Assembly: GCA_964399915.1 (NCBI GenBank)
Contig: CAYNRN010000003.1
Coordinates: 2,064 to 66,063, forward strand
Length of the DNA: 64,000 nt
Source of the DNA: an uncultured Planctomycetales bacterium
Lineage (GTDB): Bacteria; Omnitrophota; Gorgyraeia; Gygaellales; Profunditerraquicolaceae
Direction: 5' to 3'
The notes under the pieces are model-generated. The model saw nothing but the letters and a program-made list of their open reading frames with translations. It made no database searches and was not told the origin of the DNA. Positions 31,227 to 46,001 of the stretch are shown here, one piece after another (positions within the stretch are counted from its first letter, which is position 1; the number at the start of each line of letters is the position of its first letter). Made by a program: the position numbers and the translations under genes.

Positions 31227-31230
31227 TTCA

Positions 31231-32064
31231 ATGAACAAGAGGAAGATTATAAAAATAAACGAAGAAAAATGCAACGGCTGCGGCCTTTGCATCCCAAATT
31301 GCCCGGAAGGGGCATTACAGATTATTGACGGCAAAGCCCGGTTAATCAGCGACCTTTTCTGTGACGGCTTAGGGGCCTGTATCGGGCATTGCCCAGAGGG
31401 CGCCATTACTATAGTGGAGCGGGAGGCCGGAGAATACGAAGAGAAAAAGGTAATGGCCAATATCGTAAAGCAGGGTAAAAACGTGATCAAAGCCCATCTT
31501 AAGCACCTTAATGATCATAACGAAACCCGATATTTAAATCAGGCGCTTGCCTATTTGAAGGAAGAGGGCATTGAAAATCCTCTTGCTGATGAATCTAAGG
31601 GGAAGCCTGTTTTGCCTTGCGGTTGCCCCGGGACTAAAGTGGTTGACTTCAGGAAAGAAGGCGCCGCTAAAAAGCCAGAATCATCCCCGCGGCAGGAATC
31701 CGAATTAAGGCAGTGGCCGGTGCAGACCATGCTTGTGCCGGCGCACGCTCCTTATCTGGACGGCGCGGATTTACTGATTGCCGCAGACTGCGTGCCTTTT
31801 GCTTATGCCGGCTTCCATAATCAGCTGCTAAAGGATAAGATCCTGCTTGTGGGCTGCCCGAAGCTTGATGATATCGGCATATATGCGCAGAAGCTGAGAG
31901 AGATATTTAAGGGGCGCGATATCAAATCAGTAACCTACGCCCATATGGAAGTGCCTTGTTGTTTCGGCTTGGTAGAGACGATTAAATCGGCGATTTCCGA
32001 CTCCGGAAAAGCAATACCTTTCAAAGAAGCGATTATCAGCATAAAAGGAGAGAGGATTAAGTGA
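31231..32064 (+). CDS. 4Fe-4S dicluster ferredoxin-domain protein with a Cys-containing C-terminal domain of unknown function
   Basis: CNGCGLCIPNCP and CDGLGACIGHCP motifs. The C-terminal 180 aa (LVGCPKLDD...EVPCCFG) is unassigned. Confidence 0.6.
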   Translation: MNKRKIIKINEEKCNGCGLCIPNCPEGALQIIDGKARLISDLFCDGLGACIGHCPEGAITIVEREAGEYEEKKVMANIVKQGKNVIKAHLKHLNDHNETRYLNQALAYLKEEGIENPLADESKGKPVLPCGCPGTKVVDFRKEGAAKKPESSPRQESELRQWPVQTMLVPAHAPYLDGADLLIAADCVPFAYAGFHNQLLKDKILLVGCPKLDDIGIYAQKLREIFKGRDIKSVTYAHMEVPCCFGLVETIKSAISDSGKAIPFKEAIISIKGERIK

Positions 32065-32312
32065 TATTCAAGTGCCCGGGGCAGGACAGCAGGAATATAA
32101 AGGGAGAGGCAATAAAATGCCCCAAGTGCGGATATAGGGCAGAGATTTTCTCTGACGAGATAAAGGTCAGGTGCCCGGAGTGCAAGATTTTAATCTCCAG
32201 GCAGAGGCTGCCCTCATGCATTGACTGGTGTAAATCCGCCCGGGCGTGCCTTGGGCAAGAGAGGTGGAACAGGTTAAGCAAAGGTGGTATAATTGAAAAC
32301 AAGGGAGGATAA
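32061..32312 (+). CDS. Small Cys-rich zinc-ribbon protein
   Basis: CPGQ...CPKCG...CPECK...C..C..C pattern. 83 aa. Confidence 0.4.
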
Positions 32313-32317
32313 TTCAG

Positions 32318-32476
32318 ATGGAAAAATATAAGTGTACCGTCTGCAGTTATATCTATGACCCGGCAAAGGGCGATGATACTCAAGGGATTAAACCCGGAAC
32401 ACCATTCGCGGACTTACCGGATAGCTGGGTGTGCCCTGATTGCGGCGTGGGCAAGGACTTATTCGAAAAGCTATAA
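32318..32476 (+). CDS. rub: Rubredoxin (52 aa; not in the ORF track because it is <60 aa)
   Basis: [52 protein letters not shown], with canonical CxxC...CPxCG rubredoxin knuckles. RBS GGGAGG 8 nt upstream. Confidence 0.9.
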
Positions 32477-32485
32477 GAGTTCAAG

Positions 32486-33193
32486 ATGATAAAAGAATTA
32501 GAGGCCAGGATAAAAGAGATAATCCCGCGTACTTATAATGTGATAAGTTTCCGTGCAGAGGCTTCAGCCGGAGCCGATTTTAAAGCCGGACAGTTCATGG
32601 AGGTTTCCCTGAAAACAAAGCCGGTTTTAAAGAGATATCTGTCGATATCCAGTTCTCCTACCGAAAAGGGGTATCTTGAATTCACCAAAAAGATTACTCA
32701 GAGCGATTTTTGTAAGGCCCTGCAGAATTTAAAACCTGGAGATTTTCTGAATTTAAGATATCCGCTGGGTAAGTTTACCTTATCGGGAGGCGAGAAAAAG
32801 ATCGCTTTTTTATCGGGCGGCATAGGAATTACGCCGATCAGAAGCATAGTAAAATTTATTGTGGATACGAAATTAGGGCTTGATATGGTGCTGTTTTACG
32901 CCAACCGTTCAGCAAAAGATATCGCTTTCTGGGAAGATTTTGAGGATATGCAGCGTAGCTACGCCAAACTTAAAGTTATACATGTCATCAGCGAATTTTC
33001 CCAGGGCTTGACTGGCTGTAAATCCGGGATGATTAACGCAGAAATGATCAGAGAGTGCCTGTCGGATTACGCAGAGCGTAAATTCTATCTCTGCGGGCCT
33101 CCGGTAATGGTAAGCGCGATGCAGGCAATACTCTCCAAAGAGCTAAGCCTGCCCTACAGCCAAGTTATTACAGAGAATTTTCAAGGTTATTAA
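32486..33193 (+). CDS. FNR-like FAD/NAD(P)H oxidoreductase (candidate NAD(P)H:rubredoxin oxidoreductase)
   Basis: FAD-binding RYLSISS and NAD-binding AFLSGGIGITPIRS motifs. C-terminal YLCGPPVMV. Confidence 0.65.
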   Translation: MIKELEARIKEIIPRTYNVISFRAEASAGADFKAGQFMEVSLKTKPVLKRYLSISSSPTEKGYLEFTKKITQSDFCKALQNLKPGDFLNLRYPLGKFTLSGGEKKIAFLSGGIGITPIRSIVKFIVDTKLGLDMVLFYANRSAKDIAFWEDFEDMQRSYAKLKVIHVISEFSQGLTGCKSGMINAEMIRECLSDYAERKFYLCGPPVMVSAMQAILSKELSLPYSQVITENFQGY

Positions 33194-33203
33194 GGAGGTA
33201 AAT

Positions 33204-34397
33204 ATGCCGGTGCTTAAAATACTCCCCAATATTTATTCTGTGGGCGCAATAGACTGGGATGTGCGTAATTTTCACGGCCATACTTATACTACAAAAAGAG
33301 GCACTACCTATAATTCTTATCTTATAGTAGATGAGAAGATCGCCTTGGTAGATACGGTTTACGGGCCTTTCGCCGATGAACTGATTGAGAATATAAAGAG
33401 TATCGTCCTCCCGGAAAAAATAGATTTTGTGATTGCTAATCATGTGGAGACGGATCATTCAGGGGCGCTGCCTGCGATTATGAAGCTTTGCCCCAAAGCT
33501 AAAGTAATCGGGACTCAGAAATGCAAGGAAGGTTTATATAAGCATTATTACGGCAATTGGGATTTTCAGGTGGTAAAGACAGGCGATAAGATTAAACTCG
33601 GCTCGCGCAGCCTTACCTTTATGGAGGCGCCGATGATCCACTGGCCGGACAGTATGTTTACCTATTGTCCCGAAGAACAGCTGCTGCTTCCCAATGATGC
33701 TTTCGGGCAGCATTATGCCACAAGCGGGCGGTTTGACGACGAGGTAGACCAATGCGCGCTTATGGATGAGGCAAAAAAATATTACGCCAATATACTCTGG
33801 CCGTTAAGTTCCCTGATCCAGAGGAAGATTGAGGAAGTGCAGAAGTTAAATCTAGCGATCAAAATTATTGCCCCGAGCCACGGGGTGATCTGGCGCAAGG
33901 ACCCGATGAAGATTGTCAAGGCGTATCTGGCATGGGCTAAAAACGAAACTGTCCCTAAGGCGGTGATTGTTTATGAGACGATGTGGGGGGCAACCGAAAA
34001 GATGGCCCGCAGGATCACTGACGGCATAGTTGATTCCGGTGCCGAGGCTAAGGTTTATAATATCGCAACAAGCGACAGGACAGAAGTATTAAATGATATG
34101 CTTGACGCAAAAGGATTTTTGTTCGGCTCTTCTACTCACGATAATGATATGCTGCCTTCGATAGCAGCGTTTATGGAGCTTTTTAAAGGGTTAAAGCCGA
34201 AAAACCGCATTGCCGCTGTTTTCGGCTCGCATGGCTGGGCCGGCGGGGCAGTGAAAGAAATAGAGGCGGTAGCCAGGGAAGCGGGAGCCGAGGTTATCCA
34301 GCCCGGGCTTGCGCTGCAATACGTTCCGGATGCCCGGGAACTGGAAAACTGTTATGAATTCGGGAAGAGTTTTGCGCAAAGAATAAAAGGAGGATAA
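33204..34397 (+). CDS. Flavodiiron protein (rubredoxin:oxygen/NO oxidoreductase, FprA/ROO family)
   Basis: Metallo-beta-lactamase-like diiron domain (HVETDHSGALP) fused to a flavodoxin domain (AVIVYETMWGATEKMA). 397 aa. Confidence 0.8.
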   Translation: MPVLKILPNIYSVGAIDWDVRNFHGHTYTTKRGTTYNSYLIVDEKIALVDTVYGPFADELIENIKSIVLPEKIDFVIANHVETDHSGALPAIMKLCPKAKVIGTQKCKEGLYKHYYGNWDFQVVKTGDKIKLGSRSLTFMEAPMIHWPDSMFTYCPEEQLLLPNDAFGQHYATSGRFDDEVDQCALMDEAKKYYANILWPLSSLIQRKIEEVQKLNLAIKIIAPSHGVIWRKDPMKIVKAYLAWAKNETVPKAVIVYETMWGATEKMARRITDGIVDSGAEAKVYNIATSDRTEVLNDMLDAKGFLFGSSTHDNDMLPSIAAFMELFKGLKPKNRIAAVFGSHGWAGGAVKEIEAVAREAGAEVIQPGLALQYVPDARELENCYEFGKSFAQRIKGG

Positions 34398-34398
34398 G

Positions 34399-34839
34399 AT
34401 GAATACTTTTATCTGCGGTAAATGCGGGTACTTGGCTTTTGATCAGGCGCCGGATATCTGTCCGGTTTGCGGCGCTAAGAAAGAGGCCTTTGAAGCCGAT
34501 CCCTCTGCGATTAAAAAACCGGCCGATCCTAAAAGCCTTAATGATCTGGAGAAAAAGCATATCCCGGCTATAACGTTAGTCAGGAAATGCGGGCTGGTAC
34601 CTCAAGGCTGTATAGACGTACATATTAAGGTAGGGGAAATCCTGCACGTAATGGAAGCCAAACACTTTATTATGTACATAGATGTCTATCTGGATAAAAA
34701 TTTTATTGCCCGCTACCATATGACACCCGATAAATTAAACCCGGTTTTAAGCCTGCATCTTAAGGCCGACAAGGGAGAGTTGCTGGCGCTGGAAAATTGT
34801 AACCTCCACGGCAGGTGGGTTGCCGGGGCAACAATCTGA
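34399..34839 (+). CDS. Superoxide reductase (desulfoferrodoxin/neelaredoxin family) with N-terminal rubredoxin-like zinc ribbon
   Basis: N-terminal CGKCG...CPVCG. SOR-domain ligand pattern EKKHIPAI...H....H...C..H (CNLHGRW). Confidence 0.7.
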   Translation: MNTFICGKCGYLAFDQAPDICPVCGAKKEAFEADPSAIKKPADPKSLNDLEKKHIPAITLVRKCGLVPQGCIDVHIKVGEILHVMEAKHFIMYIDVYLDKNFIARYHMTPDKLNPVLSLHLKADKGELLALENCNLHGRWVAGATI

Positions 34840-35309
34840 TGGTTGCTTTAAGTGGCAGTATAATTAATTTTTTTCAGGATCAGGGGTGCGTTCTGGTCAA
34901 TAGTATCGATGAAAACGGCACGCCGCACAGCGCCTGTAAGGGGATAGTCGAGATAACGAAAAACGGGCGCGTTTTTCTATTCGACCTTTACCGGCAAAAG
35001 ACCCATAATAACCTACTGCTCAATCCTAAAATAAGTATCACCGCTTTCAACGAGCATAAGTTTATCGGTTATTGCCTTAAAGGCAGGGCCTCTGCTGTTA
35101 CCGCCGGAGAGATTAACGCCGACCTGATCAAGGCTTGGGAGGAACGGATTACCAGCAGGCTTACGCAGAGGTTATTAAAGAATATTCACGAAGAAAAGGG
35201 CCATCCGTATCATCCGGAAGCGCTCTTGCCTAAGCCGCAATATCTTATTGCAATGGATGTCGAAGAGATAGTGGATTTGACGCCGCAGCATATTAAAGAC
35301 AGGGGGTAG
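34839..35309 (+). CDS. Pyridoxamine 5'-phosphate oxidase-like FMN-binding split-barrel protein (tentative)
   Basis: Start chosen at ATG 34839 (overlapping the SOR stop as TGATG) instead of 34815. About 156 aa with an FMN-binding split-barrel-like pattern. Confidence 0.35.
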   Translation: MVALSGSIINFFQDQGCVLVNSIDENGTPHSACKGIVEITKNGRVFLFDLYRQKTHNNLLLNPKISITAFNEHKFIGYCLKGRASAVTAGEINADLIKAWEERITSRLTQRLLKNIHEEKGHPYHPEALLPKPQYLIAMDVEEIVDLTPQHIKDRG

Positions 35310-35312
35310 AAG

Positions 35313-35789
35313 ATGGGGAATATCTTTGCAGCCAGCGAGATCGTAGAGATAGGGATTCAGATCGAAAGAAACGGCAAAGATTTTTACGAAACTCTCAGCC
35401 GTAATAGCAAGGATCTCAAAGTGCAGGATACCTTCAATTTCCTTTCCGGCGAAGAAGCGAAACATATCGCTGCTTTCCAGAAGATACTCGGTTCGATAGG
35501 AAAATATGAGCCGCAGGGGCTGGATTCGGATGATTACTACGCCTATATGAATGCCTTATCTGCTGACAGCGTGTTTACCCAGAAAGATAAGGGAAGAGAA
35601 CTGGCAGCTAAGGTTAAAAACAATACCCAGGCGATTGATATGGGTATTCAGGCGGAGAAGGATTCAATTGTCTTTTATGAAGGGATAAAAAAGGCAGTAC
35701 CGGATTATGACCACAAGGCTGTAGATGAGATAATCCGTCAGGAGCAGGAACATTTAGGCATGTTATTGGGTTTAAAGAGAAAAATCTAA
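35313..35789 (+). CDS. Rubrerythrin-family ferritin-like diiron protein (no rubredoxin domain)
   Basis: Paired ExxH motifs (EEAKH; EQEH) plus E residues (IQIERNG, QAEKDS) of a four-helix-bundle diiron site. Confidence 0.6.
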   Translation: MGNIFAASEIVEIGIQIERNGKDFYETLSRNSKDLKVQDTFNFLSGEEAKHIAAFQKILGSIGKYEPQGLDSDDYYAYMNALSADSVFTQKDKGRELAAKVKNNTQAIDMGIQAEKDSIVFYEGIKKAVPDYDHKAVDEIIRQEQEHLGMLLGLKRKI

Positions 35790-35802
35790 GAGGAGGCTCT
35801 TA

Positions 35803-36039
35803 ATGGCTAAGTCGGTAAAAGTATACTCTACGCCAACTTGCCCCTGGTGCATTAAAGTTAAGCAGTTCCTTTCCGAAAATAATATCGCTTTTGAGAACTT
35901 TGATGTATCAAGCGATCAGGATAAAGCCCAGGAGATGATTAATAAAACCGGGCAGATGGGCGTGCCGGTTATCGACGTTGAAGGCGAGATCATCGTCGGG
36001 TTTGATAAAGATAAGATAAAACGAACCTTAGGAATATGA
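35803..36039 (+). CDS. Glutaredoxin-like protein (NrdH/YruB family)
   Basis: CPWC active site (VYSTPTCPWCIKVKQFL). GVPVI cis-Pro motif. 78 aa. Confidence 0.8.
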   Translation: MAKSVKVYSTPTCPWCIKVKQFLSENNIAFENFDVSSDQDKAQEMINKTGQMGVPVIDVEGEIIVGFDKDKIKRTLGI

Positions 36040-36953
36040 CCTACGATTTAGTCGTCATCGGCGCCGGGCCCGCTGGTATTACCGCAGCGATTTATGCAGC
36101 CAGAAAACGTTTAAATACCCTGGTGATTACCAAGGATATCGGGGGACAGGCGGCGTGGAGCGGGGATATCGAGAATTACATCGGATACCAATTTATCACT
36201 GGTCCTGACCTGGTAGAAAAGTTTGAAGAGCACCTGCGTAAATATGATATCGTTTTAAAAGAAAACGAAGCTGTTCAGACAGTAGAGAAACAAGGGAATA
36301 AAATTAAAGTCAAGACAGACAAGGCTGAATATGATTCCCGTACCGTGATTATTGCCTGCGGAAAGCGCTCTCGCGAATTGAATGTCCCGGGAGAAAAAGA
36401 ATTTAAGAATAAAGGCCTTACTTACTGCGCCACCTGTGACGGCCCGTTATTCAGCGGCAAAGATGTAGCGGTTATCGGAGGAGGTAATTCCGCCCTGGAT
36501 GCGGCACTGCAGTTAGCCAATATCGCTAGAAAAGTATATATTATCAATAATACCGTGCAGTTGGTAGGCGATGAAATAATGCTTGAGAAATTAACCGGTA
36601 ATACCAAAGTCGCGGTATTTAATGATGCCCGGGTTTTGGAGGTCTTTGGGGATAAATTTGTTAGCGGCCTGAAGATAAAACAGCAGGGTAGGGAGCAGGA
36701 ATTAACTGTTCAGGGCGTCTTTGTTGAAATCGGGCTCCTGCCTAACTCAAGGATCGTTCCGCAGGCGGCTAAGAACGTTTCTGCGGAAATTAAGGTTAAC
36801 TTTGCCAACGAAACCAGTATCCCGGCAGTATTCGCCGCCGGAGACGTAACCGATGTGCCGGAGAAACAAATCATTATTGCCGCCGGAGAAGGTGCTAAGG
36901 CCGCATTAAGCGCGTTCCGATATCTTGCCAGAAACAGGTTCAACCAGGAGTAA
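36036..36953 (+). CDS. trxB: Thioredoxin-disulfide reductase
   Basis: FAD motif VVIGAGPAG, redox-active CATCDG, NADPH motif GGGNSA. 305 aa. Confidence 0.8.
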   Translation: MTYDLVVIGAGPAGITAAIYAARKRLNTLVITKDIGGQAAWSGDIENYIGYQFITGPDLVEKFEEHLRKYDIVLKENEAVQTVEKQGNKIKVKTDKAEYDSRTVIIACGKRSRELNVPGEKEFKNKGLTYCATCDGPLFSGKDVAVIGGGNSALDAALQLANIARKVYIINNTVQLVGDEIMLEKLTGNTKVAVFNDARVLEVFGDKFVSGLKIKQQGREQELTVQGVFVEIGLLPNSRIVPQAAKNVSAEIKVNFANETSIPAVFAAGDVTDVPEKQIIIAAGEGAKAALSAFRYLARNRFNQE

Positions 36954-36966
36954 TTTTCAAAACCTC

Positions 36967-36995
36967 TTGCTAATTCTTTAAAGCGGTAATATAAT
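36967..36995 (+). promoter_or_regulatory. Sigma70-like promoter TTGCTA-17-TATAAT upstream of yggT
   Basis: Hexamers at 36967-36972 and 36990-36995. Confidence 0.5.
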
Positions 36996-37049: not shown

Positions 37050-37355
37050 ATGTCTATCTTCTCTAATCTAGTCTTTGCGCTGGCGCAGATAGTCAATATA
37101 CTCCTAACCGTGCTTTACTGGCTGATTTTGATCCGCGCTTTAATCAGCTGGGTAAACCCGGATCCCTATAACCCAATAGTCCAGTTTCTTTACAAGAGCA
37201 CCGAACCGATACTTTCTCCCATCCGCAGGCTGCTGCCTGTATCTTTGAAGTTCGGCATAGATATTTCTCCAATCATCGCGTTTTTCGTAATATTATTTTT
37301 TAAATCGTTTATAGTAAATAGCTTATTTGACCTTGCGTTACGGCTGAAATCATAA
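37050..37355 (+). CDS. yggT: YggT family membrane protein
   Basis: 101 aa. LIRALISWVNPDPYNPIVQFLYKSTEPILSPIRRLLP is the YggT signature. Confidence 0.75.
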   Translation: MSIFSNLVFALAQIVNILLTVLYWLILIRALISWVNPDPYNPIVQFLYKSTEPILSPIRRLLPVSLKFGIDISPIIAFFVILFFKSFIVNSLFDLALRLKS

Positions 37356-37443: not shown

Positions 37444-38889
37444 ATGCTGCAATATTTTATGGGGATGTTCAGGAGTATCCGGGTCATCGATTTTATTGAT
37501 ATTGCGATTATCGCGATTATGATTTATTTAGTGTTATTGTGGTTGAAAAAGGCCCGGGCGCGTTTTATCCTCATCGGCATGATCATTATCGGGCTGATCT
37601 ATGTTCTAGCAAAGATTTTCAGTCTTTATATGACAACCATGTTTTTCCAGGGGTTCTTCGCGATCCTGTTAATTATGGTGGTAATAATCTTCCAGGATGA
37701 ATTCCGCCACTTCTTTGAGAGAGTAGCGGTATTGGGGACGCAGAGAAGGCGCCGGGGCGTATCCTACGGGCAGGATATTGAAATTTTAAGCAGCGCTATA
37801 GCAAATCTGTCACGTAAACAAATCGGCGCACTGGTGGCTATCCGGGGCCGGGATCCGCTAGACCGCCACCTGGAAGCCGGTATCCGCGTTGACGGGCTTC
37901 TCAGCCAGGTATTGCTTGAAAGCCTGTTTGACCCGCATGCCCCGAGCCATGACGGGGCAGTGATTTTAGACGGCGGCAGGGTAGGGCGCTTTAGCGCTTA
38001 TCTCCCTCTTTCTACCAACGTCAATGAAATCGGCAGGTCCGGGACACGTCATGCCGCGGCCTTAGGCTTAACCGAGCGCTCGGATGCGCTTTGTATAGTA
38101 GTTTCCGAAGAGCGCGGCACAATTTCCGTTGCCGAAGCCGGACGTATCCGGGAATTATCCGATCCGGCCCAGCTTAATAGTATCTTGGCAGATTTTTACC
38201 GCAGCCGCTATCCGGAGAAAAAGGGGTCTACCCTTACGGATTTATTGGCCGGCCATCTTTCTGAGAAGATACTGGCAATTATATTGGCAGCGGCAATCTG
38301 GGCGATCTTCGGATATCAGAAAGACATCATCCGCCGCGATTTTGTGATTCCGGTAGAATACCGGAATCTTTCGCAGGATAGAATAATTGGCGAACCTAAA
38401 CCCAAAGAAGTAACTATTACTCTCAACGGCGCAGAGCGGGCCTTTAATATGGTCGACCCTAAAGAGCTTAAGCTTTCCCTGGATATGTCCAAGGTCCAAG
38501 ACGGAGAGAATAATATTATATTGAATGAGGAAATGGCACGTTACCCTGCCGGCTTCTCGGTATTAAACATTGAACCCGAACGAATCAAACTTAAGATTGA
38601 AAGGATGGTTACATTTACCGTTCCCGTAGAAGTAAAGACGCAAGGGACGCTTCCCGCGGGGTTGTCTTTAGTCCAGATAAAGGTTGAGCCTAAAGAGATA
38701 CAGGTAGTAGCCCCCAGCACGCTTCCTACGGGAAAAATCAATATCACTACCGACGTTATCGACTTAAAAACCATAACAGCAACCACAACGTTTACTCCTA
38801 AACTGATAGTCCCGCCGCAGGTGACTTTAACCGCGAATAAATATCTGGATATCAAAGTCACTGTCGAAGTGGAAACCAAGGAAAAATAG
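37444..38889 (+). CDS. cdaA: Diadenylate cyclase CdaA fused to a YbbR-like (CdaR regulator-type) C-terminal domain
   Basis: Three N-terminal TM helices. DAC domain (HDGAVILDGGRVGRFSAYLPLS...GTRHAAALGLTERSDALCIVVSEERGTISVA). Then a fourth TM and about 200 aa of beta-rich YbbR-like repeats. Confidence 0.7.
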   Translation: MLQYFMGMFRSIRVIDFIDIAIIAIMIYLVLLWLKKARARFILIGMIIIGLIYVLAKIFSLYMTTMFFQGFFAILLIMVVIIFQDEFRHFFERVAVLGTQRRRRGVSYGQDIEILSSAIANLSRKQIGALVAIRGRDPLDRHLEAGIRVDGLLSQVLLESLFDPHAPSHDGAVILDGGRVGRFSAYLPLSTNVNEIGRSGTRHAAALGLTERSDALCIVVSEERGTISVAEAGRIRELSDPAQLNSILADFYRSRYPEKKGSTLTDLLAGHLSEKILAIILAAAIWAIFGYQKDIIRRDFVIPVEYRNLSQDRIIGEPKPKEVTITLNGAERAFNMVDPKELKLSLDMSKVQDGENNIILNEEMARYPAGFSVLNIEPERIKLKIERMVTFTVPVEVKTQGTLPAGLSLVQIKVEPKEIQVVAPSTLPTGKINITTDVIDLKTITATTTFTPKLIVPPQVTLTANKYLDIKVTVEVETKEK

Positions 38890-38907: not shown

Positions 38908-40386
38908 ATGTGGACAAAAGAAAGCCTGCAGGCATTGATTAAAGAGAAGCTGGAAGATTACCTCTTTGTGGTTGTTTCTAACCGGCAGCCTTATGTGCAT
39001 ACTTTTAAAAGAGGCAGGGTTGAATACCGGAGAGGCGCCGGCGGAGTAGTTACTGCCCTTGACCCGGTAATGCAGGCCTGCCACGGGCTTTGGGTAGCGT
39101 TCGGCAGCGGAGACGCTGACAGGAAGGTAAGCGACGCGCAGGGTAAGTTAGGAGTTCCCCCTGAAAGCCCCAACTATACCCTCAGGAGAGTATGGCTTAC
39201 TAAGGAGGAAGAAAACGGTTATTATTTCGGGTATTCCAACGAGGCACTCTGGCCGCTTTGCCATATGGCATTTCAGCGCCCGGTGTTCCGCAAAGAAGAC
39301 TGGGAATATTATGTCAAGGTAAATAAAAAATTCGCCCAGGCAGTAGCCGAAGAGGTAAATCATAAGAAGGCATTTATCTGGATACAGGATTACCATCTTT
39401 GCCTACTGGGAAAATTTTTAAAAGAGCTCCTGCCGGGCAAGATCATTGTTTCGCACTTCTGGCATATTCCCTGGCCGAATTATGAAACTTTCCGCATCTG
39501 TCCGCAAAAGAAAGAGATACTCGAGGGGCTCCTGGCGAATGATTTGATGGGTTTTCATATCCGCAACCACTGCGCTAATTTTATCGAGGCAATAGACAGA
39601 GAGATAGAAAGCAAGATAGACCGCGAACGTTTTTCCGTTATCCGCGGCGGGCACGAAACCATTGTCCGGCCGTATCCGATCAGCGTAGATTTTGAAGGGA
39701 TCAGCAGTTTTTCTGCTGCCGGAGAAGCGGATAAAATAGGGCAGGCGCTGATTGAAGAATTCAGCCTCAGCGGTCTAAAAGTTATGCTGGGCTTAGACCG
39801 CATAGATTATACAAAAGGTATTCCGGAGAGGTTACTGGCGATAGACGCGCTTTTTGAGGCGCACCCGGAGTTGAAAGAAAAGATTGTTTTTCTGCAGATG
39901 GGGGAGATCAGCCGTATCCATATACCTAAATATAAGGAATTGAACGATGAAATTAACGCTCTGGTCGAACAGATAAACTGGAAACACTCTACCGGTGAGT
40001 GGAGGCCGGTAATTTTAGTAAGGAGGCACCTTTCATTCAAGGAACTGGCGGGTTTCTACCGGATGGGGGAGGTATGTATTGTCAGCTCTTTACATGACGG
40101 CATGAACTTGGTAGCTAAAGAGTTTATTTCCTCGCGTTCGGATGAGAATGGCATGCTGGTCTTAAGTCAATTTACCGGCGCTGCGCGCGAATTGACCGAC
40201 GCGATACTGGTTAATCCCTTTGACCGCCATCAGTTCAGTGAAGGCATCTACCAGGCATTGAATCTGCCTTCGGAAGAAAAGCAGAAGAGGATGAATAAGA
40301 TGCGCGCCATAATCCAGCAGAATAATATCTTCCGTTGGGCAGGCAAGGTGCTTTCAGAACTTTTAAAGTTTGAGTTTAAGGAATGA
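38908..40386 (+). CDS. otsA: Alpha,alpha-trehalose-phosphate synthase (GT20)
   Basis: GT20 family motifs (LWVAFGSGD, IWIQDYHL, HFWHIPWP, SLHDGMNLVAKEF). 492 aa. Confidence 0.85.
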   Translation: MWTKESLQALIKEKLEDYLFVVVSNRQPYVHTFKRGRVEYRRGAGGVVTALDPVMQACHGLWVAFGSGDADRKVSDAQGKLGVPPESPNYTLRRVWLTKEEENGYYFGYSNEALWPLCHMAFQRPVFRKEDWEYYVKVNKKFAQAVAEEVNHKKAFIWIQDYHLCLLGKFLKELLPGKIIVSHFWHIPWPNYETFRICPQKKEILEGLLANDLMGFHIRNHCANFIEAIDREIESKIDRERFSVIRGGHETIVRPYPISVDFEGISSFSAAGEADKIGQALIEEFSLSGLKVMLGLDRIDYTKGIPERLLAIDALFEAHPELKEKIVFLQMGEISRIHIPKYKELNDEINALVEQINWKHSTGEWRPVILVRRHLSFKELAGFYRMGEVCIVSSLHDGMNLVAKEFISSRSDENGMLVLSQFTGAARELTDAILVNPFDRHQFSEGIYQALNLPSEEKQKRMNKMRAIIQQNNIFRWAGKVLSELLKFEFKE

Positions 40387-41186
40387 AGTATCTCTTACGC
40401 TATTGGCGCGTTTTGCCCGGGAAGGCCCGCGCTAAATATAAAGTTTTATTTTTAGATTTTGACGGTACTCTGGCGAAGATTGTAAAAAGCCCCCGTAAGG
40501 CCAGGATTGAGCCGTCAATTAAACTTTTATTGCTCCGAATAACGCAGGATAAGGCATACAGGGTTGCAGTTATCAGCGGTAGGGCGCTTGGCGACATCAA
40601 GAAGAGGGTCGGGATTAAAGGCATTGTTTATATCGGGAATCACGGTTTGGAAATTGACGGCTCCAAGATCAGGTTCTCTGGCTTTCAAATTGATAAATTC
40701 AGGTTAACGCTCAAACGGCTGAAGGCAAAACTGAAACAGAGGTTAGATCCGATAAAAGGGATTTTTATAGAAGATAAAGGATTAAGCTTGAGTGTACATT
40801 ACCGCTTGGTTAAAAAAAAGGACTTGGCCTTTTTTAAAGCCGCTTTTGCACAGATAACTGCTGAATATGCCTCCGGCAATAAAATAAAAATCCATCCGGG
40901 GAAGAAAGTTTTTGAGATCCGCCCTCCTCTGCAATGGGATAAAGGCAAAGTTGCGCTCTGGCTTTTAGCCAGATGGAAGTCCGCTTTTGCGGATAAGGAG
41001 GTATTGACGGTTTACATCGGAGATGATCTCACCGATGAAGATGCTTTCCGGGCTCTCGCGGGTAAGGCTATAACGGCGGTAGTGGGTAAAAGGAAAGATT
41101 CGGCAGCCGCTTACTATTTAAATAACGTAGGGGAAGTAGCAAGATTCTTAAACGTTCTGGGGCCGGCAAAATGCCTAAAATTATAA
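40383..41186 (+). CDS. otsB: Trehalose-6-phosphate phosphatase (HAD-IIB)
   Basis: HAD motif I FLDFDGTLA, motif IV GDDLTDEDAF. Start overlaps the otsA stop (ATGA). Confidence 0.8.
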   Translation: MKYLLRYWRVLPGKARAKYKVLFLDFDGTLAKIVKSPRKARIEPSIKLLLLRITQDKAYRVAVISGRALGDIKKRVGIKGIVYIGNHGLEIDGSKIRFSGFQIDKFRLTLKRLKAKLKQRLDPIKGIFIEDKGLSLSVHYRLVKKKDLAFFKAAFAQITAEYASGNKIKIHPGKKVFEIRPPLQWDKGKVALWLLARWKSAFADKEVLTVYIGDDLTDEDAFRALAGKAITAVVGKRKDSAAAYYLNNVGEVARFLNVLGPAKCLKL

Positions 41187-41842
41187 AAGCTAAAGAGCCG
41201 TTTAGGTTTTACACGCGTTTGCATTTATCAGAACTGACCGGATTAAAGGCGGTTAATCTCTCTCAACTTCTGGGAATCTTAAAAGAAGTTCCCGGTTCAA
41301 GCATATACCATCATACGCACAGGTTCCTACAGCAGCACCAATATCTTTCTCCCGAGCCTCCGAATGATTTTGCCTACTGGGTTTCCAGCGTCCTTGCCGA
41401 AGATGCCCTTGCCGAAGAACTGGCCAGTATCGATACCATCCAGTATTCTAATATCCGCAGCCTCAGGGAGAAGATAATCCAGACTATAGAAGATTACCTT
41501 AAAGAACACCCTATGGCAAAGTTGAAATTCGCCAACGAAGAGGAAGCTTTTTATTTTATCAAATCAATCAGTTTCGTTGTGCCGACAAAATACGTGGCGC
41601 ATGATTTAAAAGAGTTCATCAGCATCCTGGAAAGAGTGACCGTAGATTCGATATATTTCCATATCTTTGAGGCCCGCCTGAGGCTTGAGAAGCAGACTAA
41701 TGACTTCTCTTTATGGATCGAGACCTCTTTAGGCGATAAGCCGCTGGCGGATAGAATCGCCAATATTGACCCATATACGCGCACGCTTGAAGACTTACGC
41801 AGAACCTTAATCCGCATAATCGAAAGGAAGGTTTCATCATAA
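41171..41842 (+). CDS. Hypothetical protein conserved in the trehalose locus (223 aa, soluble)
   Basis: No recognisable catalytic motif. Overlaps both the otsB end and the treT start, implying co-translation with them. Confidence 0.4.
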   Translation: MPKIIKAKEPFRFYTRLHLSELTGLKAVNLSQLLGILKEVPGSSIYHHTHRFLQQHQYLSPEPPNDFAYWVSSVLAEDALAEELASIDTIQYSNIRSLREKIIQTIEDYLKEHPMAKLKFANEEEAFYFIKSISFVVPTKYVAHDLKEFISILERVTVDSIYFHIFEARLRLEKQTNDFSLWIETSLGDKPLADRIANIDPYTRTLEDLRRTLIRIIERKVSS

Positions 41843-41845
41843 AGC

Positions 41846-43057
41846 ATGGCACGCATCGACGAATATATCCCAATTGTCGGAGAATCAATTATCGATGACC
41901 TTCGGCTGATCGCCGAAAAGCTTAAAGGTAAAGTCATCCAGCATATAAATTCTACACCGGTAGGCGGAGGGGTCGCCGAGATTCTCAATTGCATGGTCCC
42001 GCTCCTAAAGGAGCTTGGCGTTGATACCCGATGGGATGTGATTAAGGGGGGTGAACAGTTTTTTAGTACGACTAAGAAATTCCATAACGCCCTGCACGGA
42101 AGGCGCGAAAACATTACTGACAGGGATTTTGAGGTTTTTCTTGAAACGAGCAACCACAATATTGAAGAAGTAAATACTTACGGGGATATTGTCTTTGTGC
42201 ACGACCCCCAACCGATTGCGCTGATAAGGAAGAAGGCCGAAAACAAATGGATCTGGCGTTGTCATATCGACGTATCAAATCCTGACAGTAAAGTCTGGAG
42301 TTTTCTCCGCGATTTCGTGGTTAAATACGATTCAGCGGTATTTTCAGCGCCCGGATTTTCACAGCCGCTGCCGATCAGGCAATTCCTGATTTCGCCTTCC
42401 GTCGACCCTTTAAGCGATAAAAATAAGGAATTGCCTCAAGCTGATGTTGAAGCAGTGATGAAGAAGCACGGGATACGTAAAAATAAGCCGGTAATCACTC
42501 AGATCTCGCGTTTTGACCGGCTAAAGGATCCGCTGGGGGTAATCCAGACATATAAACTGGTAAAAAAATATACCGATTGCCAACTGGTGCTTGCCGGAGG
42601 CACTGCTTCTGATGACCCGGAAGGGGCGCAGGTCCTGGAAGAGGTAAGGGAGGCAGCTAAAGGGGATTCCGATATCCATATTTTACTCTTACCGCAGAAC
42701 GACCTGGAGATAAACGCACTGCAAAGGGGCTCTACGGTTATCATGCAGAAATCCCTGAGAGAGGGGTTTGGCCTTACGGTTTCAGAGGCGCTCTGGAAGG
42801 CAAAACCTGTGGTTGCTTCCCATGTCGGAGGCATCCCGCTTCAGATAAAGCATAAATATTCCGGGCTTCTCTGCCATTCTATAGAAGGCGCCGCCTTTGC
42901 CCTCAAACAACTTTTAAACAGCCCGGAATACGCAAAGAAGCTGGGCGCAAACGGGAAGGAGCATATCCGCAATAACTTTTTGATCACCCGGCACCTGAGG
43001 GATTATATACTTTTATTTCTCTCGCTTTTTCATCCCGAAGACATCGTTAACCTTTAA
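41846..43057 (+). CDS. treT: Trehalose glycosyltransferring synthase TreT-like GT4 glycosyltransferase
   Basis: The N-terminus (IPIVGESIIDDLRLIAEKLKGKVIQHINSTPVGGGVAEILNCMVPLLKELGVDTRWDVIKGG..FF..TKKFHNALHG) closely mirrors archaeal TreT. GT4 C-terminal EGFGLTVSEAL. Confidence 0.65.
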   Translation: MARIDEYIPIVGESIIDDLRLIAEKLKGKVIQHINSTPVGGGVAEILNCMVPLLKELGVDTRWDVIKGGEQFFSTTKKFHNALHGRRENITDRDFEVFLETSNHNIEEVNTYGDIVFVHDPQPIALIRKKAENKWIWRCHIDVSNPDSKVWSFLRDFVVKYDSAVFSAPGFSQPLPIRQFLISPSVDPLSDKNKELPQADVEAVMKKHGIRKNKPVITQISRFDRLKDPLGVIQTYKLVKKYTDCQLVLAGGTASDDPEGAQVLEEVREAAKGDSDIHILLLPQNDLEINALQRGSTVIMQKSLREGFGLTVSEALWKAKPVVASHVGGIPLQIKHKYSGLLCHSIEGAAFALKQLLNSPEYAKKLGANGKEHIRNNFLITRHLRDYILLFLSLFHPEDIVNL

Positions 43058-43077: not shown

Positions 43078-43105
43078 CTTGACAAATACGCTAAATTGTG
43101 TATAC
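43078..43105 (+). promoter_or_regulatory. Promoter TTGACA-16-TATACT upstream of the second Rrf2 regulator; it shares its -35 context (AAAAAcTCTTGACAAAT) with the first Rrf2 promoter
   Basis: cTTGACAAATacgctaaattgtgTATACT. Confidence 0.5.
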
Positions 43106-43136
43106 TCTACTAAGATAATAGAGATTATAGGATAAT

Positions 43137-43577
43137 ATGAGGATAACCTATAAAGGGGATTACGCCTTAAAAGTTATTTTGAATTTAAGCCTGCATTACG
43201 GCGGCGGCCTGGTGACGATTCATGATTTAGCCAGGCGACTGGACATACCGGTCAAGTTCCTTGAGCAGATACTGCTGGATTTAAAAAGAGGCGGTTTCCT
43301 CCAGAGCAGGCGCGGTAAAATCGGAGGTTATTCTTTGGCTAAAGCCCCGGCTAAAATAAAGCTGGGGGAGGTAATCAGGTTTATTGACGGGCCGGTCAGC
43401 CCGGTTGCCTGTGTAGATAAGAGTTATAAGGGGTGCAGTGATATCACCACCTGCGTATTCAGGGAAATCTGGCAGCGCATCGCCGCTTCAACTGCCGCGA
43501 TAATCGATAATATCACTTTTGAAGACCTGACGAAGAAGATCAAAAGGGCGGGCAAGGCACTGGTTTATCAAATTTAA
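43137..43577 (+). CDS. Rrf2 family transcriptional regulator, CymR-like (cysteine-metabolism repressor type)
   Basis: Rrf2 wHTH ([23 protein letters not shown]...[42 protein letters not shown]). Directly precedes cysK, as in the Firmicutes cymR-cysK arrangement. Confidence 0.7.
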
Positions 43578-43581
43578 AACT

Positions 43582-44505
43582 ATGCGCATAGCTAAAAATA
43601 TTACAGAATTAATCGGCAATACTCCTTTGGTGAGGTTAAACAGGGCCACTGAAGGCTGTGTTGCAGAGGTGGTCGCGAAATTAGAGTCCTTTAATCCCTG
43701 CTCTTCGGTGAAGGACCGTATCGGCCTGAGTATGATTGAGGCAGCGGAAAAGGAAGGCAGGATTAAAAAAGGCGCTGTGATCATAGAGCCCACCTCCGGT
43801 AATACCGGCATTGCCTTGGCTTTTGTCTGCGCGGTGAAAGGCTATAAACTGATCCTGACTATGCCCGAGACGATGAGTACGGAGCGCAGGCAGCTTTTGA
43901 CCGCTTTTGGCGCGGAGATTATCTTAACGCCCGGGGCGGAGGGGATGTCCGGGGCAGTCAGGAGAGCGGAAGAACTGGCAAAAAAAGAAAAGAACTATTT
44001 TATATTACAGCAATTCAGGAATCCGGCTAACCCAGAAATCCACCGGAAAACCACAGCCGTTGAAATCTGGCAGGATACCGGAGGAAAAGTTGATATTCTG
44101 GTAGCGGGAATCGGCACAGGAGGCACAATCACCGGCGTATCAGAAGTAATCAAGAGGAAAAAACCTTCACTTAAGGTAATCGCCGTAGAGCCGAAAGATT
44201 CTCCGGTGCTTTCCGGAGGCAAGCCCGGCCCCCATAAGATCCAGGGTATAGGCGCGGGGTTTGTTCCTGAAATCCTGAATAGCAAAATAATCGATGAAAT
44301 TATTCAGGTCTCTAATGAAGAAGCGATAGAGGCATCCAGGCAGCTTGCCAAGAAAGAGGGGATTTTGGCGGGTATTTCTTCCGGGGCGGCTGTCTTTGCG
44401 GCGCTTGAAGCCGCCCGCAGGAAAGAAAACAGAGATAAACTGATAGTAGTCATTCTTCCGGATACCGGAGAGCGCTATCTCAGCACTGAATTATTCAAAG
44501 AATAG
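43582..44505 (+). CDS. cysK: Cysteine synthase A (O-acetylserine sulfhydrylase)
   Basis: PLP-lysine motif [25 protein letters not shown]. Confidence 0.9.
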
Positions 44506-44517
44506 AAAGGAGATCCC

Positions 44518-44745
44518 ATGGCCATAAAAGATAAGGTTGAGCAAGCGTTGAACAAAGTGCGCCCGATGCTGGCAGCCGACGGCGGCAACGTAGAGTTAGT
44601 AGATGTCAGCGCAGACGGAGTCGTAAAATTAAAGCTTACCGGAAGCTGCGGCTGTTGCCCGATGTCGCAGATGACGCTGAAGATGGGGGTAGAAAAGATA
44701 ATCAAAAAAGACGTGCCGGAGGTAAAAGAAGTAATCGCTATCTGA
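44518..44745 (+). CDS. NifU-like Fe-S cluster carrier domain protein (Nfu)
   Basis: 75 aa with GSCGCCPMS (CxxC cluster-binding) and the NifU C-terminal-domain pattern. Confidence 0.75.
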   Translation: MAIKDKVEQALNKVRPMLAADGGNVELVDVSADGVVKLKLTGSCGCCPMSQMTLKMGVEKIIKKDVPEVKEVIAI

Positions 44746-44798
44746 AATTGAGGGCAGGAGCTACCATATAGATCATCCAAGAGTTTACGGGAGAGTCC

Positions 44799-46001
44799 AT
44801 GAAAACAATTAAAGAAATCAATGATAAGATAAAGAAGGGCCAGGCGGTAGTGGTTACGGCCGAAGAGATTATAGATCTGGTTGATAAGAAGGGGCCAAAG
44901 AAGGCCGCTGAAGAAGTCGACGTAGTCACTACCGGCACCTTCGGCCCGATGTGTTCTTCCGGGGCATATTTTAATATCGGGCATTCGAAACCCAGGATAA
45001 AGTTAGGAGGAGGAAGCTGTAAGCTTAATGATGTTCCGGCTTACTGCGGATTCGCCGCGGTAGACATTTATCTGGGAGCGACTGCCGTGCCGGATGACGA
45101 CCCTTTGAACAAGGTATTCCCCGGTGAATTTAAATATGGCGGCGCCCATGTGATAAATGAGATTGTCGCAGGGCGCGATGTGCGCCTTCAGGCAACGGCA
45201 TACGGGACAGATTGTTATCCCAGGAAGAAACTGGAAACCATGGTCAATATCAGGGATTTAAACGAAGCAGTATTATTTAATATCCGCAACTGCTATCAGA
45301 ACTATAATGTGGCGGTAAATCTCTCGGATAAGATAATCTATACCTATATGGGGGTATTGAAGCCTAACCTGGGTAACGCCAACTATTGCTCAGCAGGGCA
45401 GCTTTCCCCGCTTTTGAAAGACCCTCACTATAAAACAATCGGCATCGGGACAAAGATATTTCTAGGCGGGGGTATCGGATATGTAGCATGGCAGGGGACT
45501 CAGCATAACCCAAGCGTAAAGAGGAAAGAAAACGGGATACCTCAGGCGCCTGCCGGCACACTTGCGGTAATCGGCGACTTGAAACAGATGAAACAGGAAT
45601 GGCTTACGGGAATCAGTATGCTTGGTTACGGAGTTACGCTAACCGTGGGCATAGGGGTCCCTATTCCGGTGCTTGATGAGGAGATAGTTAAATACGCGGC
45701 GGCAGGTGACGAACAGATATTCGCGCAGGTAGTGGATTACGGCAAGAGTTATCCGGAGTGCGTACCGGGGTCGTTGGCAGAAGTCAATTATGCCCAGCTG
45801 AAAACCGGCAAGATTACCGTTCAGGGTAAAAGTATCCCTACAGGCAACTTATCCAGCTATTCCAAGGCGCGCGAGATCGCCGAGGAGCTGAAGTCATGGA
45901 TTAAGAAAGGCGATTTCCTGCTTAGCGAGCCGGTAGCAAGATTGCCCGGCGCAGAATCCGGGTATACCTTTAAGATGCTCAACGAAAGGCCGATAGTATA
46001 A
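44799..46001 (+). CDS. DUF39/COG1900 homocysteine-biosynthesis protein (MA1821-type L-aspartate-semialdehyde sulfurtransferase family)
   Basis: 400 aa with a characteristic N-terminus (KTIKEINDKIKKGQAVVVTAEEIIDLV...VDVVTTGTFGPMCSSGAYFN). Immediately followed by an NIL-ferredoxin partner. Confidence 0.6.
   Translation: MKTIKEINDKIKKGQAVVVTAEEIIDLVDKKGPKKAAEEVDVVTTGTFGPMCSSGAYFNIGHSKPRIKLGGGSCKLNDVPAYCGFAAVDIYLGATAVPDDDPLNKVFPGEFKYGGAHVINEIVAGRDVRLQATAYGTDCYPRKKLETMVNIRDLNEAVLFNIRNCYQNYNVAVNLSDKIIYTYMGVLKPNLGNANYCSAGQLSPLLKDPHYKTIGIGTKIFLGGGIGYVAWQGTQHNPSVKRKENGIPQAPAGTLAVIGDLKQMKQEWLTGISMLGYGVTLTVGIGVPIPVLDEEIVKYAAAGDEQIFAQVVDYGKSYPECVPGSLAEVNYAQLKTGKITVQGKSIPTGNLSSYSKAREIAEELKSWIKKGDFLLSEPVARLPGAESGYTFKMLNERPIV

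Follow-up and report, generated by a model that had tools for sequence, protein, structure and literature searches.

A DUF5752 protein as a candidate TreT accessory in an Omnitrophota operon predicted to encode two trehalose routes

INTRODUCTION

Trehalose is a major stress protectant. In Thermoproteus tenax, the enzyme TPSP requires a non-catalytic glycosyltransferase (GT) partner, and the operon includes a mechanosensitive channel (PMC3634074). The TreT pathway of the same species has been described as unidirectional (PMC3634074; PMC7688234). In the Thermococcales, treT lies in the maltose/trehalose ABC transporter cluster (TM cluster) malE-malF-malG-treT-trmB-malK, for which no DUF5752 gene is listed (PMC4158304). 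Passages on TreT in a 2024 review of TreT-type enzymes name no partner protein (PMC11046441).

Here we analyze a trehalose locus in a 64-kb stretch of DNA (the window) from an uncultured bacterium of the Omnitrophota. We propose that the DUF5752 protein encoded in this locus may be functionally tied to TreT and not to OtsAB.

RESULTS

A four-gene operon for trehalose synthesis. Four close-packed genes, otsA, otsB, an ORF for a 223-aa DUF5752 protein and treT, occupy positions 38908-43057 on the + strand, with the anatomy proposed in an earlier reading of the sequence alone (hereafter the sequence-only reading). The operon and its surroundings contain the following features.

36967..36995, + strand: promoter-like site by consensus match alone, TTGCTA-17-TATAAT (10/12), upstream of the YGGT gene
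37050..37355, + strand: YGGT-family small membrane protein (PF02325, E 5e-23)
37444..38889, + strand: diadenylate cyclase CdaA, C-terminally fused to a YbbR domain (PF02457, E 1.4e-33; PF07949; PF19293)
38908..40386, + strand: otsA, putative GT20 trehalose-6-phosphate synthase, 492 aa (PF00982 Glyco_transf_20, E 1.4e-125, residues 20-485)
40383..41186, + strand: otsB, trehalose-6-phosphate phosphatase (HAD-IIB), 267 aa (PF02358 Trehalose_PPase, E 4.6e-39)
41171..41842, + strand: DUF5752/OrfY-family protein, 223 aa (PF19027, E 5.2e-71)
41846..43057, + strand: treT, predicted GT4 trehalose glycosyltransferring synthase, 403 aa (PF21269 TreT_GT1 and PF00534)
43079..43106, + strand: strong promoter-like site TTGACA-16-TATACT (11/12), within the 79-nt gap after treT

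The otsA and otsB genes share an ATGA overlap (40383-40386), otsB overlaps the DUF5752 gene by 16 nt, and the DUF5752 stop codon is separated by 3 nt from the treT ATG, which has a Shine-Dalgarno-like run, AAGGAAGG, upstream. These junctions are compatible with translational coupling. Minus-strand ORFs overlap the region as well, one of them at 41551-42159. The profile E-values of the four proteins lie far outside the chance range, and an independent JGI contig (L001) carries the same gene order.

The promoter-like site after treT appears to start the next unit (Rrf2-cysK-HcyBio) and would therefore mark the 3' boundary of the operon, and a longer transcription unit may have its 5' boundary at the site upstream of the YGGT gene; the count of promoter-like sites in the region is not above that in shuffled sequence. 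Only 18 nt separate the end of cdaA from otsA, and a terminator scan found no terminator-like site between them. We rejected the YGGT gene as a part of the module, as it lies upstream of DUF5752 in only 3/43 Omnitrophota loci, and likewise a conserved c-di-AMP link via cdaA, which is adjacent in only 2/43. No Rfam family of known RNAs or riboswitches matched the window at gathering thresholds.

OtsA is the best reading of the GT20 protein, a reading supported by the adjacent OtsB. Its best single-function NCBIfam match is TIGR02400 (442.6 bits; cutoff, 564.85), the fused TPS/TPP model NF011071 gives 490.8 bits and the glucosylglycerol-phosphate synthase model a lower 314 bits, every NCBIfam match being under its equivalog cutoff. 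OtsB passes the equivalog cutoff of TIGR00685 (T6PP) with 158.7 bits versus 68.05.

The GT4 protein belongs to the TreT family. The sequence-only reading had noted a resemblance at the N-terminus, and the match in fact extends over the full length. Besides the domains PF21269 (E 5.5e-55, residues 33-172) and PF00534 (E 6e-24), the protein matches the solved TreT of T. uzoniensis (6zj4) over residues 4-394 (E 1.5e-126), with 48% identity in the pairwise alignment (E 1e-141), and that of P. horikoshii (2x6q; E 1e-102); it does not cluster with generic GT4 enzymes. The segments NSTpvGGGVAEIL, SRFDRLKDP and REGFGLTVSEALWK align with the corresponding motifs of 6zj4, and they contain the donor-site motifs of GT4 enzymes, namely, a glycine-rich loop, an R/K pair and E-x7-E. 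The score against NF041139 (TreT_Thcocales equivalog), 369.2 bits, is under the cutoff of 775, and this model is still the top NCBIfam match by ~300 bits. Hence, we assign the protein as a TreT-type synthase (EC 2.4.1.245), predicted to use NDP-glucose plus glucose to make trehalose. This reaction would provide a second route beside OtsAB, and the region reads as a compatible-solute operon encoding two trehalose routes.

Because TreT can be reversible, the locus had also been suggested to serve trehalose breakdown. We find no support for this idea, because the nearest solved TreT comes from Thermoproteus, the genus whose T. tenax enzyme is described as unidirectional; directionality is not readable from sequence. 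Kouril and colleagues reportedly established the unidirectional pathway of T. tenax in 2008, and the reversible TreT described by Qu and colleagues in 2004 is said to be that of the Thermococcales.

DUF5752 is a catalogued family with a solved homologue. The protein encoded between otsB and treT had been put forward as an unknown protein and a candidate new accessory factor. Its conservation with the locus held up (see below), but the family is not new: a profile search of 41171-41842 gave a clear match to DUF5752, PF19027, with 238.7 bits against a gathering cutoff of 23 and with model positions 2-208 of 208 covered. The protein is a sequence and fold homologue of T. tenax OrfY (PDB 4CSO), with only ~25% identity, and its best relatives (66-85% identity) are proteins from Omnitrophota MAGs and genomes. 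DUF5752 consists of an internal tandem duplication; one conserved His and one N-D-F-x-x-W motif recur in each of the two repeats, and there are nearly invariant aromatic and acidic residues. A full-text literature search returned no relevant paper on DUF5752, T. tenax OrfY or 4CSO and no established role for OrfY.

The conserved partner of DUF5752 is treT. A TreT N-terminus lies within 500 nt downstream, on the same strand, of 161/161 DUF5752 copies in related loci with at least 400 nt of downstream sequence; this is not an unbiased survey, because the loci were retrieved via DUF5752 and two clades dominate, the Omnitrophota and the clade with the MscS fusion described below. The median gap between the alignment ends is 9 nt. 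In the best 80 genome loci the order otsA-otsB-DUF5752-treT is kept wherever the contig permits, and otsB-DUF5752-treT is found in all Omnitrophota genome loci with sufficient flank; the 223-aa ORF is thus conserved with its locus. The DUF5752-treT pair also occurs in Thermoproteus (L085), Pyrobaculum (L086), an unclassified bacterium (L087), a marine contig (L088) and two further loci (L172 and L173), and in L088 and L172 it stands without otsAB. In the OrfY locus itself (L174), the protein identical to residues 6-213 of the 216-residue 4CSO chain is encoded directly upstream of treT, and orfY overlaps treT. Hence, the conserved partner of DUF5752 is specifically treT, with otsAB as optional neighbors, and DUF5752-treT is a mobile two-gene module of Bacteria and Archaea that is joined to otsAB in the Omnitrophota lineage. 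The locus in the window is a bacterial instance of this known module.

Does treT also occur without DUF5752? A search of plasmids for DUF5752 gave no match, and low sensitivity was possibly part of the cause. We therefore looked directly at what lies upstream of treT homologues on two plasmids, one haloarchaeal and one from Streptomyces; both are PF21269 TreT genes, and neither comes with DUF5752. The Thermococcales, whose TM cluster lists no DUF5752 gene, are a further group with treT alone.

Across 76 loci, the correlation between pairwise-distance matrices is r = 0.935 for DUF5752 with TreT, compared with r of 0.67-0.80 for every other protein pair among the four; such a correlation may come from joint inheritance of neighboring genes instead of contact. 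Mean pairwise identity is 64% for DUF5752, 72% for TreT, 64% for OtsA and 47% for OtsB, which places DUF5752 close to OtsA in conservation and far above OtsB.

Domain fusions and alternative roles. In ~60 metagenome loci DUF5752 is the C-terminal part of an MscS protein (TM and beta-domain), and treT lies directly downstream in each of these loci with sufficient flank. In Methylomirabilota, genes for fusions of maltokinase (Mak) and DUF5752 overlap treT within GlgE-TreS-GT4 clusters; their products carry the JGI label 'trehalose synthase-fused probable maltokinase'. Free, MscS-fused and Mak-fused DUF5752 are all followed by treT, so that three architectures share one downstream gene. OtsB is fused to DUF5752 in a single protein, P0201, in which the initial ~53 positions of the DUF5752 profile are missing and which may be a gene-call artefact. 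No natural DUF5752::TreT fusion was found among the 150 best representatives.

The MscS fusion raises the question of whether DUF5752 serves MscS-like channels as a detachable subunit on the cytoplasmic side, with the adjacency to treT being only a by-product of the location of both in osmoadaptation islands. In the fusion, DUF5752 directly follows the MscS beta-domain, at the position expected for the usual third (alpha-beta) domain, which was not detected; unfused DUF5752-treT pairs have short MS-channel-like genes beside them in L087, L169-L171 and L173, and an MscS gene lies at most 8 kb upstream in 15/43 Omnitrophota loci. However, the channel-protein queries used match nothing in the window, gene calls in the flanks retrieved for the L088 and L172 modules include no channel, the maltokinase fusions are not channels, and treT is the sole constant neighbor. 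We consider such a subunit very improbable.

The depositors of 4CSO labeled OrfY a "transcription factor", and DUF5752 could accordingly be a DNA-binding protein that autoregulates the treT operon. We found no recognizable DNA-binding domain or fold: no Pfam DNA-binding domain reaches threshold, traces of HTH_20 appear in two members only (E 0.026 and 0.6), one of the CtsR matches is to the isolated C-terminal domain (6fh4), and the weak structural matches are all short helical segments. The median pI is 6.3, the gene sits in mid-operon, with translational coupling likely between two enzyme genes, and a C-terminal cytoplasmic domain of MscS or a fusion to a kinase would be odd for a DNA binder. 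Hence, a role as a transcription factor is improbable.

The same fusions could also point to a small-molecule sensor for trehalose, glucose or maltose that would allosterically control its fusion partners (MscS gating, maltokinase and possibly OtsB), with the free form buffering or sensing sugar and with no need for TreT binding. The partners MscS, Mak and, in one case, OtsB all either act on trehalose or its derivatives or let solutes out. Along with the His and the N-D-F-x-x-W motif of each repeat, there are nearly invariant aromatic and acidic residues of a kind common in sugar sites, and pseudo-twofold symmetry in the protein would match a disaccharide that is itself symmetric. We regard a pure sensor as rather unlikely; its function would overlap with that of a TreT partner and does not exclude it.

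DISCUSSION

What, then, does DUF5752 do next to TreT? We hypothesize that it is an accessory dedicated to TreT, acting as a docking or regulatory module. Stated more specifically, DUF5752 would have no catalytic role and would bind TreT, regulating it when free and tethering it when fused, a proposal to which we give an even chance. Recombinant Thermoproteus TreTs are active alone, and DUF5752 is therefore presumably dispensable for catalysis. The free protein would bind and regulate TreT, and its two conserved His...NDFxxW motifs may bind a sugar. Fused DUF5752 would hold TreT at an MscS-type mechanosensitive channel, coupling trehalose synthesis to the osmotic or membrane-tension state, or at maltokinase, coupling it to further flux toward the GlgE alpha-glucan pathway.

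In its most concrete form, which we find possible and somewhat doubtful, DUF5752 docks TreT on the cytoplasmic side of MscS in a large uncultivated clade and on maltokinase in Methylomirabilota, and the protein in the window is the unfused adaptor. If the docking on MscS is true, one tension-sensing complex controls both the synthesis of a compatible solute and solute release; if that on maltokinase is true, trehalose is channelled into the GlgE alpha-glucan pathway.

With this analysis, an uncharacterized family whose crystal structure had stood as an orphan for ten years becomes a concrete candidate for a TreT accessory. Its fusions to MscS and to maltokinase suggest a possible direct link between compatible-solute synthesis and a mechanosensitive channel; if true, such a link would add a new principle of regulation to osmoadaptation. 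An accessory protein could also be relevant to the biocatalytic use of TreT enzymes.

How does the locus compare with known systems? The nearest counterpart of its DUF5752-treT pair, orfY-treT of T. tenax, is crenarchaeal, whereas the window locus is bacterial and has the pair directly after otsA-otsB in one operon. With the msc-gt-tpsp operon of T. tenax (Zaparty et al. 2013, PMC3634074) the DUF5752 systems share the pairing of a trehalose enzyme with a non-catalytic partner, the genetic link between a mechanosensitive channel and trehalose synthesis, and a GT20 TPS with a TPP. However, T. tenax has a fused TPS-TPP with a GT4 protein as its partner, whereas the window has separate otsA and otsB genes, with DUF5752 as the candidate partner. 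The GT4 protein of the window is a bona fide TreT with a TreT_GT1 domain, and this domain is missing from the activator GT's homologue in Pyrobaculum. We thus rejected the GT4 protein as a TPS activator of the T. tenax type, and also a complex of that type (TPSP, activator GT and MSC), as the Pyrobaculum activator GT and the channel-protein queries used match nothing in the window.

The TreT of the Thermococcales TM cluster belongs to the same enzyme family (2x6q), but that cluster serves sugar uptake and use with the regulator TrmB, unlike the operon described here. Successive enzymes from trehalose to glucan are known to be physically coupled, as in TreS-maltokinase (Pep2) of the GlgE pathway. 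The maltokinase of Methylomirabilota likewise carries an extra module beside the gene of a trehalose-forming enzyme; this module is DUF5752 and not TreS, and the adjoining enzyme is TreT, an architecture absent from the window. Finally, the osmoregulatory otsBA operon of E. coli also encodes a GT20 synthase and a HAD phosphatase together. The window has the order otsA-otsB and is extended by DUF5752-treT, and this extension would therefore allow a second route, with no phosphorylated intermediate, to be co-expressed with the first.

Organization of the trehalose operon

Two complete trehalose routes, OtsA-OtsB and TreT, are encoded together in the window. The sequence-only reading had placed the four open reading frames exactly, and all lie on the forward strand, behind a gene for a cyclic-di-AMP enzyme:

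37444-38889, CdaA diadenylate cyclase fused to its usual partner domain YbbR (CdaR-like), 481 aa
38908-40386, + strand, otsA, GT20 family, 492 aa; PF00982 over the full length, E = 1.4e-125
40383-41186, + strand, otsB, trehalose-6-phosphate phosphatase, 267 aa; PF02358, E = 4.6e-39
41171-41842, + strand, DUF5752 gene, 223 aa; PF19027 end to end, E = 5.2e-71
41846-43057, + strand, treT, 403 aa; N-terminal PF21269, E = 5.5e-55, and C-terminal GT4 domain PF00534, E = 6e-24

The top single-function NCBIfam model for the otsA product was TIGR02400 (OtsA; 442.6 bits, versus 314 bits for glucosylglycerol-phosphate synthase), and the fused TPS/TPP model NF011071 scored slightly higher at 490.8 bits; all three scores lie below the equivalog cutoffs. 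The otsB product reached 158.7 bits with TIGR00685, exceeding the cutoff of 68. The otsA and otsB genes share an ATGA overlap, otsB and the DUF5752 gene overlap by 16 nt, and a 3-nt spacer with a purine-rich Shine-Dalgarno-like run leads into treT; both overlaps and the spacer are consistent with the translational coupling that had been proposed.

We place the end of the operon at treT because a sigma-70-like promoter (11/12) precedes the next unit within the 79-nt gap that follows. That unit (43137-46001) encodes an Rrf2-family regulator, CysK, and HcyBio (homocysteine biosynthesis, PF01837); the same trio follows treT in comparison locus L048, and Rrf2-cysK does so in L070. At the other end, the CdaA-YbbR gene stops 18 nt before otsA and a terminator scan detected no terminator-like site in between; hence, transcription may start further upstream, and a promoter-like site at 36967 (10/12, a consensus-level match) is a possible origin. 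c-di-AMP is a known signal in osmolyte homeostasis. Among 43 related Omnitrophota loci with at least 6 kb of upstream sequence, neither cdaA (2 loci) nor YGGT (3 loci) is a conserved neighbor, and a separate MscS gene is common in these free-DUF5752 operons (15 loci). Further upstream (approximately 30831-36953, mapped from positions 1-5783 of L001) lies a long same-strand oxidative-stress cluster encoding an Rrf2 regulator, a ferredoxin-like protein, rubredoxin, an FAD/NAD reductase, a flavodiiron protein (Lactamase_B, ODP, and flavodoxin domains), desulfoferrodoxin, a PNPOx-like protein, rubrerythrin, glutaredoxin, and a thioredoxin-reductase-like protein.

Identity and direction of TreT

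The resemblance to TreT, at first claimed for the N terminus of the GT4 protein, extends across its entire length. In phmmer searches of PDB sequences, residues 4 to 394 matched the Thermoproteus uzoniensis "trehalose phosphorylase/synthase" (6zj4) with an E-value of 1.5e-126 and the Pyrococcus horikoshii TreT (2x6q) followed at 1e-102, while generic GT4 matches began at 4e-14 and covered only the C-terminal half. BLASTP aligned the protein with the T. uzoniensis enzyme at 48% identity, and the glycine-rich loop, the SRxDRxKD segment, and the E-x7-E segment line up with their counterparts in 6zj4. The narrow Thermococcales TreT equivalog was not reached (369 bits versus a cutoff of 775), which places the enzyme nearer the Thermoproteus type. 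We also considered the "activator GT" of the Thermoproteus tenax type and rejected it: a Pyrobaculum homologue of this activator has no TreT_GT1 domain, and a search of the window with it gave no match.

A reversible TreT that also breaks down trehalose, as first suggested for this locus, is not what these relationships favor, as the nearest solved TreT is that of Thermoproteus and the co-expressed OtsAB pathway is synthetic. Thermococcales TreT is said to be reversible (work of Qu et al. in 2004). Its gene belongs to a sugar-uptake cluster, the TM cluster malE-malF-malG-treT-trmB-malK, for which no DUF5752 gene is listed (PMC4158304), while the T. tenax TreT pathway has been described as unidirectional (PMC3634074, PMC7688234). 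Because the window enzyme is Thermoproteus-like and co-expressed with OtsAB, and because the reversible type sits in an uptake cluster without DUF5752, the locus would be read as synthetic, with glucose-6-phosphate and free glucose as its two acceptors, and not as a combination of synthesis and breakdown, the direction itself being beyond the reach of sequence.

DUF5752 is an internally duplicated protein encoded next to treT

The 223-aa protein, initially called unknown, is no orphan but a full-length member of Pfam family DUF5752. Relatives number 4866 in a 90%-identity protein collection and 868 clusters (E ≤ 1e-3) in an exhaustive HMMER scan of 50%-identity representatives, they are encoded in at least 585 species-level genomes, and the nearest (66 to 85% identity) come from Candidatus Omnitrophota metagenome-assembled genomes (MAGs), thereby identifying the lineage from which the window derives. 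Internally, the protein is tandemly duplicated (half against half, E = 1e-10, 28% identity): each half consists of a beta-hairpin followed by helices and bears one conserved His and one N-D-F-x-x-W motif, and residues 51 to 64 form a low-confidence loop. Among 57 diverse members, H48 and W70 never vary, and conservation is 90% or higher at F11, F13, D66, F67, E82, F127, H164, D178, F179, and W182. This conserved, mostly helical protein gave no detectable DNA-binding or catalytic domain. The paired His/NDFxxW motifs might bind sugar and make DUF5752 a trehalose sensor, a role that we find possible but doubtful, and that would be compatible with binding to TreT.

DUF5752 lies immediately 5' of treT at every locus examined. 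The order otsA-otsB-DUF5752-treT is intact, wherever the contig permits, in the top 80 genome loci, which all come from Omnitrophota or from MAGs similar to them in sequence. Beyond the phylum, the co-occurrence with treT remained constant, but that with otsAB did not. A Thermoproteus sp. (L085) has DUF5752-treT with a 4-nt overlap and without otsAB, in a Pyrobaculum sp. (L086) the pair adjoins a divergent TPSP-GT-small-protein cluster, and an unclassified bacterium (L087) has otsA-otsB-DUF5752-treT-MscS. The pair stands alone as two genes in a marine contig (L088) and in L172, follows an MS-channel-like gene in L173, and overlaps by 4 nt in L174, whose DUF5752 protein is identical to the aligned residues (6 to 213 of 216) of the T. 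tenax OrfY structure 4CSO. A TreT N terminus is encoded within 500 nt downstream on the same strand in 161 of 161 DUF5752 copies with at least 400 nt of downstream sequence, a sample biased by retrieval via DUF5752 and dominated by two clades but still covering Bacteria, Archaea, and three protein architectures.

In 76 nonredundant loci carrying all four genes, pairwise distance matrices correlated best between DUF5752 and TreT (r = 0.935; all other pairs, 0.67 to 0.80), and mean pairwise identities were 72% for TreT, 64% for DUF5752, 64% for OtsA, and 47% for OtsB. This fits a unit that is inherited and constrained together, although correlation does not prove contact. The Omnitrophota operons (L005 to L084) contain two OtsA types, approximately 50% (e.g., L012, L041, and L072) or 76% (e.g., L010, L047, and L083) identical to the window OtsA, and several have an MscS gene between otsA and otsB, which suggests that otsA was replaced and a channel gene inserted while DUF5752-treT remained unchanged.

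TreT also occurs without DUF5752. When 72,556 plasmids were searched by tblastn, a TreT homologue turned up in 23 records and a DUF5752 match in none. On Natrialba magadii pNMAG01 (L175, 3244-5224), the gene upstream of the PF21269-containing TreT encodes an HVO_A0563_N plus HTH_10 regulator, not DUF5752, and a universal stress protein gene follows. On Streptomyces pFRL4 (L176, 3968-5434), TreT carries a fused C-terminal YHS metal-binding domain and its upstream neighbor is a divergent universal stress protein gene, again not DUF5752. In our sample DUF5752 never occurs without treT, and this asymmetry is the pattern expected for an accessory protein.

DUF5752 is repeatedly fused to channels and maltokinases

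Many longer proteins from the exhaustive scan end in a DUF5752 domain, which is repeatedly joined to a partner that releases solutes (MscS) or acts in trehalose-derived flux (maltokinase). The MscS fusions (approximately 300 to 600 aa) have transmembrane segments and the MscS beta-domain (PF00924) with DUF5752 immediately after it; the alpha-beta MS_channel_3rd domain was not detected in them. A metagenome scan queried with fusions gave approximately 60 full-length cases (L089 to L150, e.g., L092, 7001-8365), each with treT immediately 3' where the flank suffices and with otsA-otsB upstream or downstream. The maltokinase fusions (approximately 700 to 750 aa, Mak_N_cap, with the kinase motif HGDYHLGQ) come from Methylomirabilota (NC10), and their stop codon overlaps treT in clusters of the order GlgE, TreS-like, GlgM-like GT4, maltokinase::DUF5752, and TreT, followed by a 415-aa protein without a strong Pfam match and a 233-aa MS_channel_1st-like protein:

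L169, 8001-13412
L170, 8001-15234, with an additional free DUF5752-treT pair
L171, 8001-13425, with an added GH15 trehalase

In a neighbor-joining tree of the DUF5752 domain the maltokinase fusions group in one clade and the majority of MscS fusions in another, which implies at least two independent fusion events. Two further proteins join a partial DUF5752, missing the first 50 to 65 profile positions, to OtsB (Trehalose_PPase; P0201, 485 aa) or to a Mem_trans transporter fragment (P0228, 285 aa), and these may be gene-call or assembly artifacts.

The PDB entry 4CSO is labeled "transcription factor." We consider this role unlikely, as DUF5752 occurs fused to a channel and a kinase, is encoded mid-operon, lacks an HTH, and has a median pI of 6.3. 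We give even chances to the hypothesis that DUF5752 binds TreT and serves it as a regulatory or docking subunit. The T. tenax TPSP-GT complex, with its linked channel (PMC3634074), offers the analogy, and tight translational coupling would supply the two proteins in matched amounts.

Relation to known systems

Neither the strict DUF5752-treT coupling, seen at all examined loci across Bacteria and Archaea, nor the recurrent fusion to MscS channels and maltokinase was found described in the searchable literature; together they make the function of DUF5752 directly testable, and tethering of TreT to a channel, if true, would raise the importance of the locus. The enzymes themselves are unremarkable. 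T. tenax orfY-treT, with its deposited structure, already represents the DUF5752-treT pair, and in Pyrobaculum, too, TPS/TPP genes lie beside the pair; hence, the window locus is an added bacterial member of a known module.
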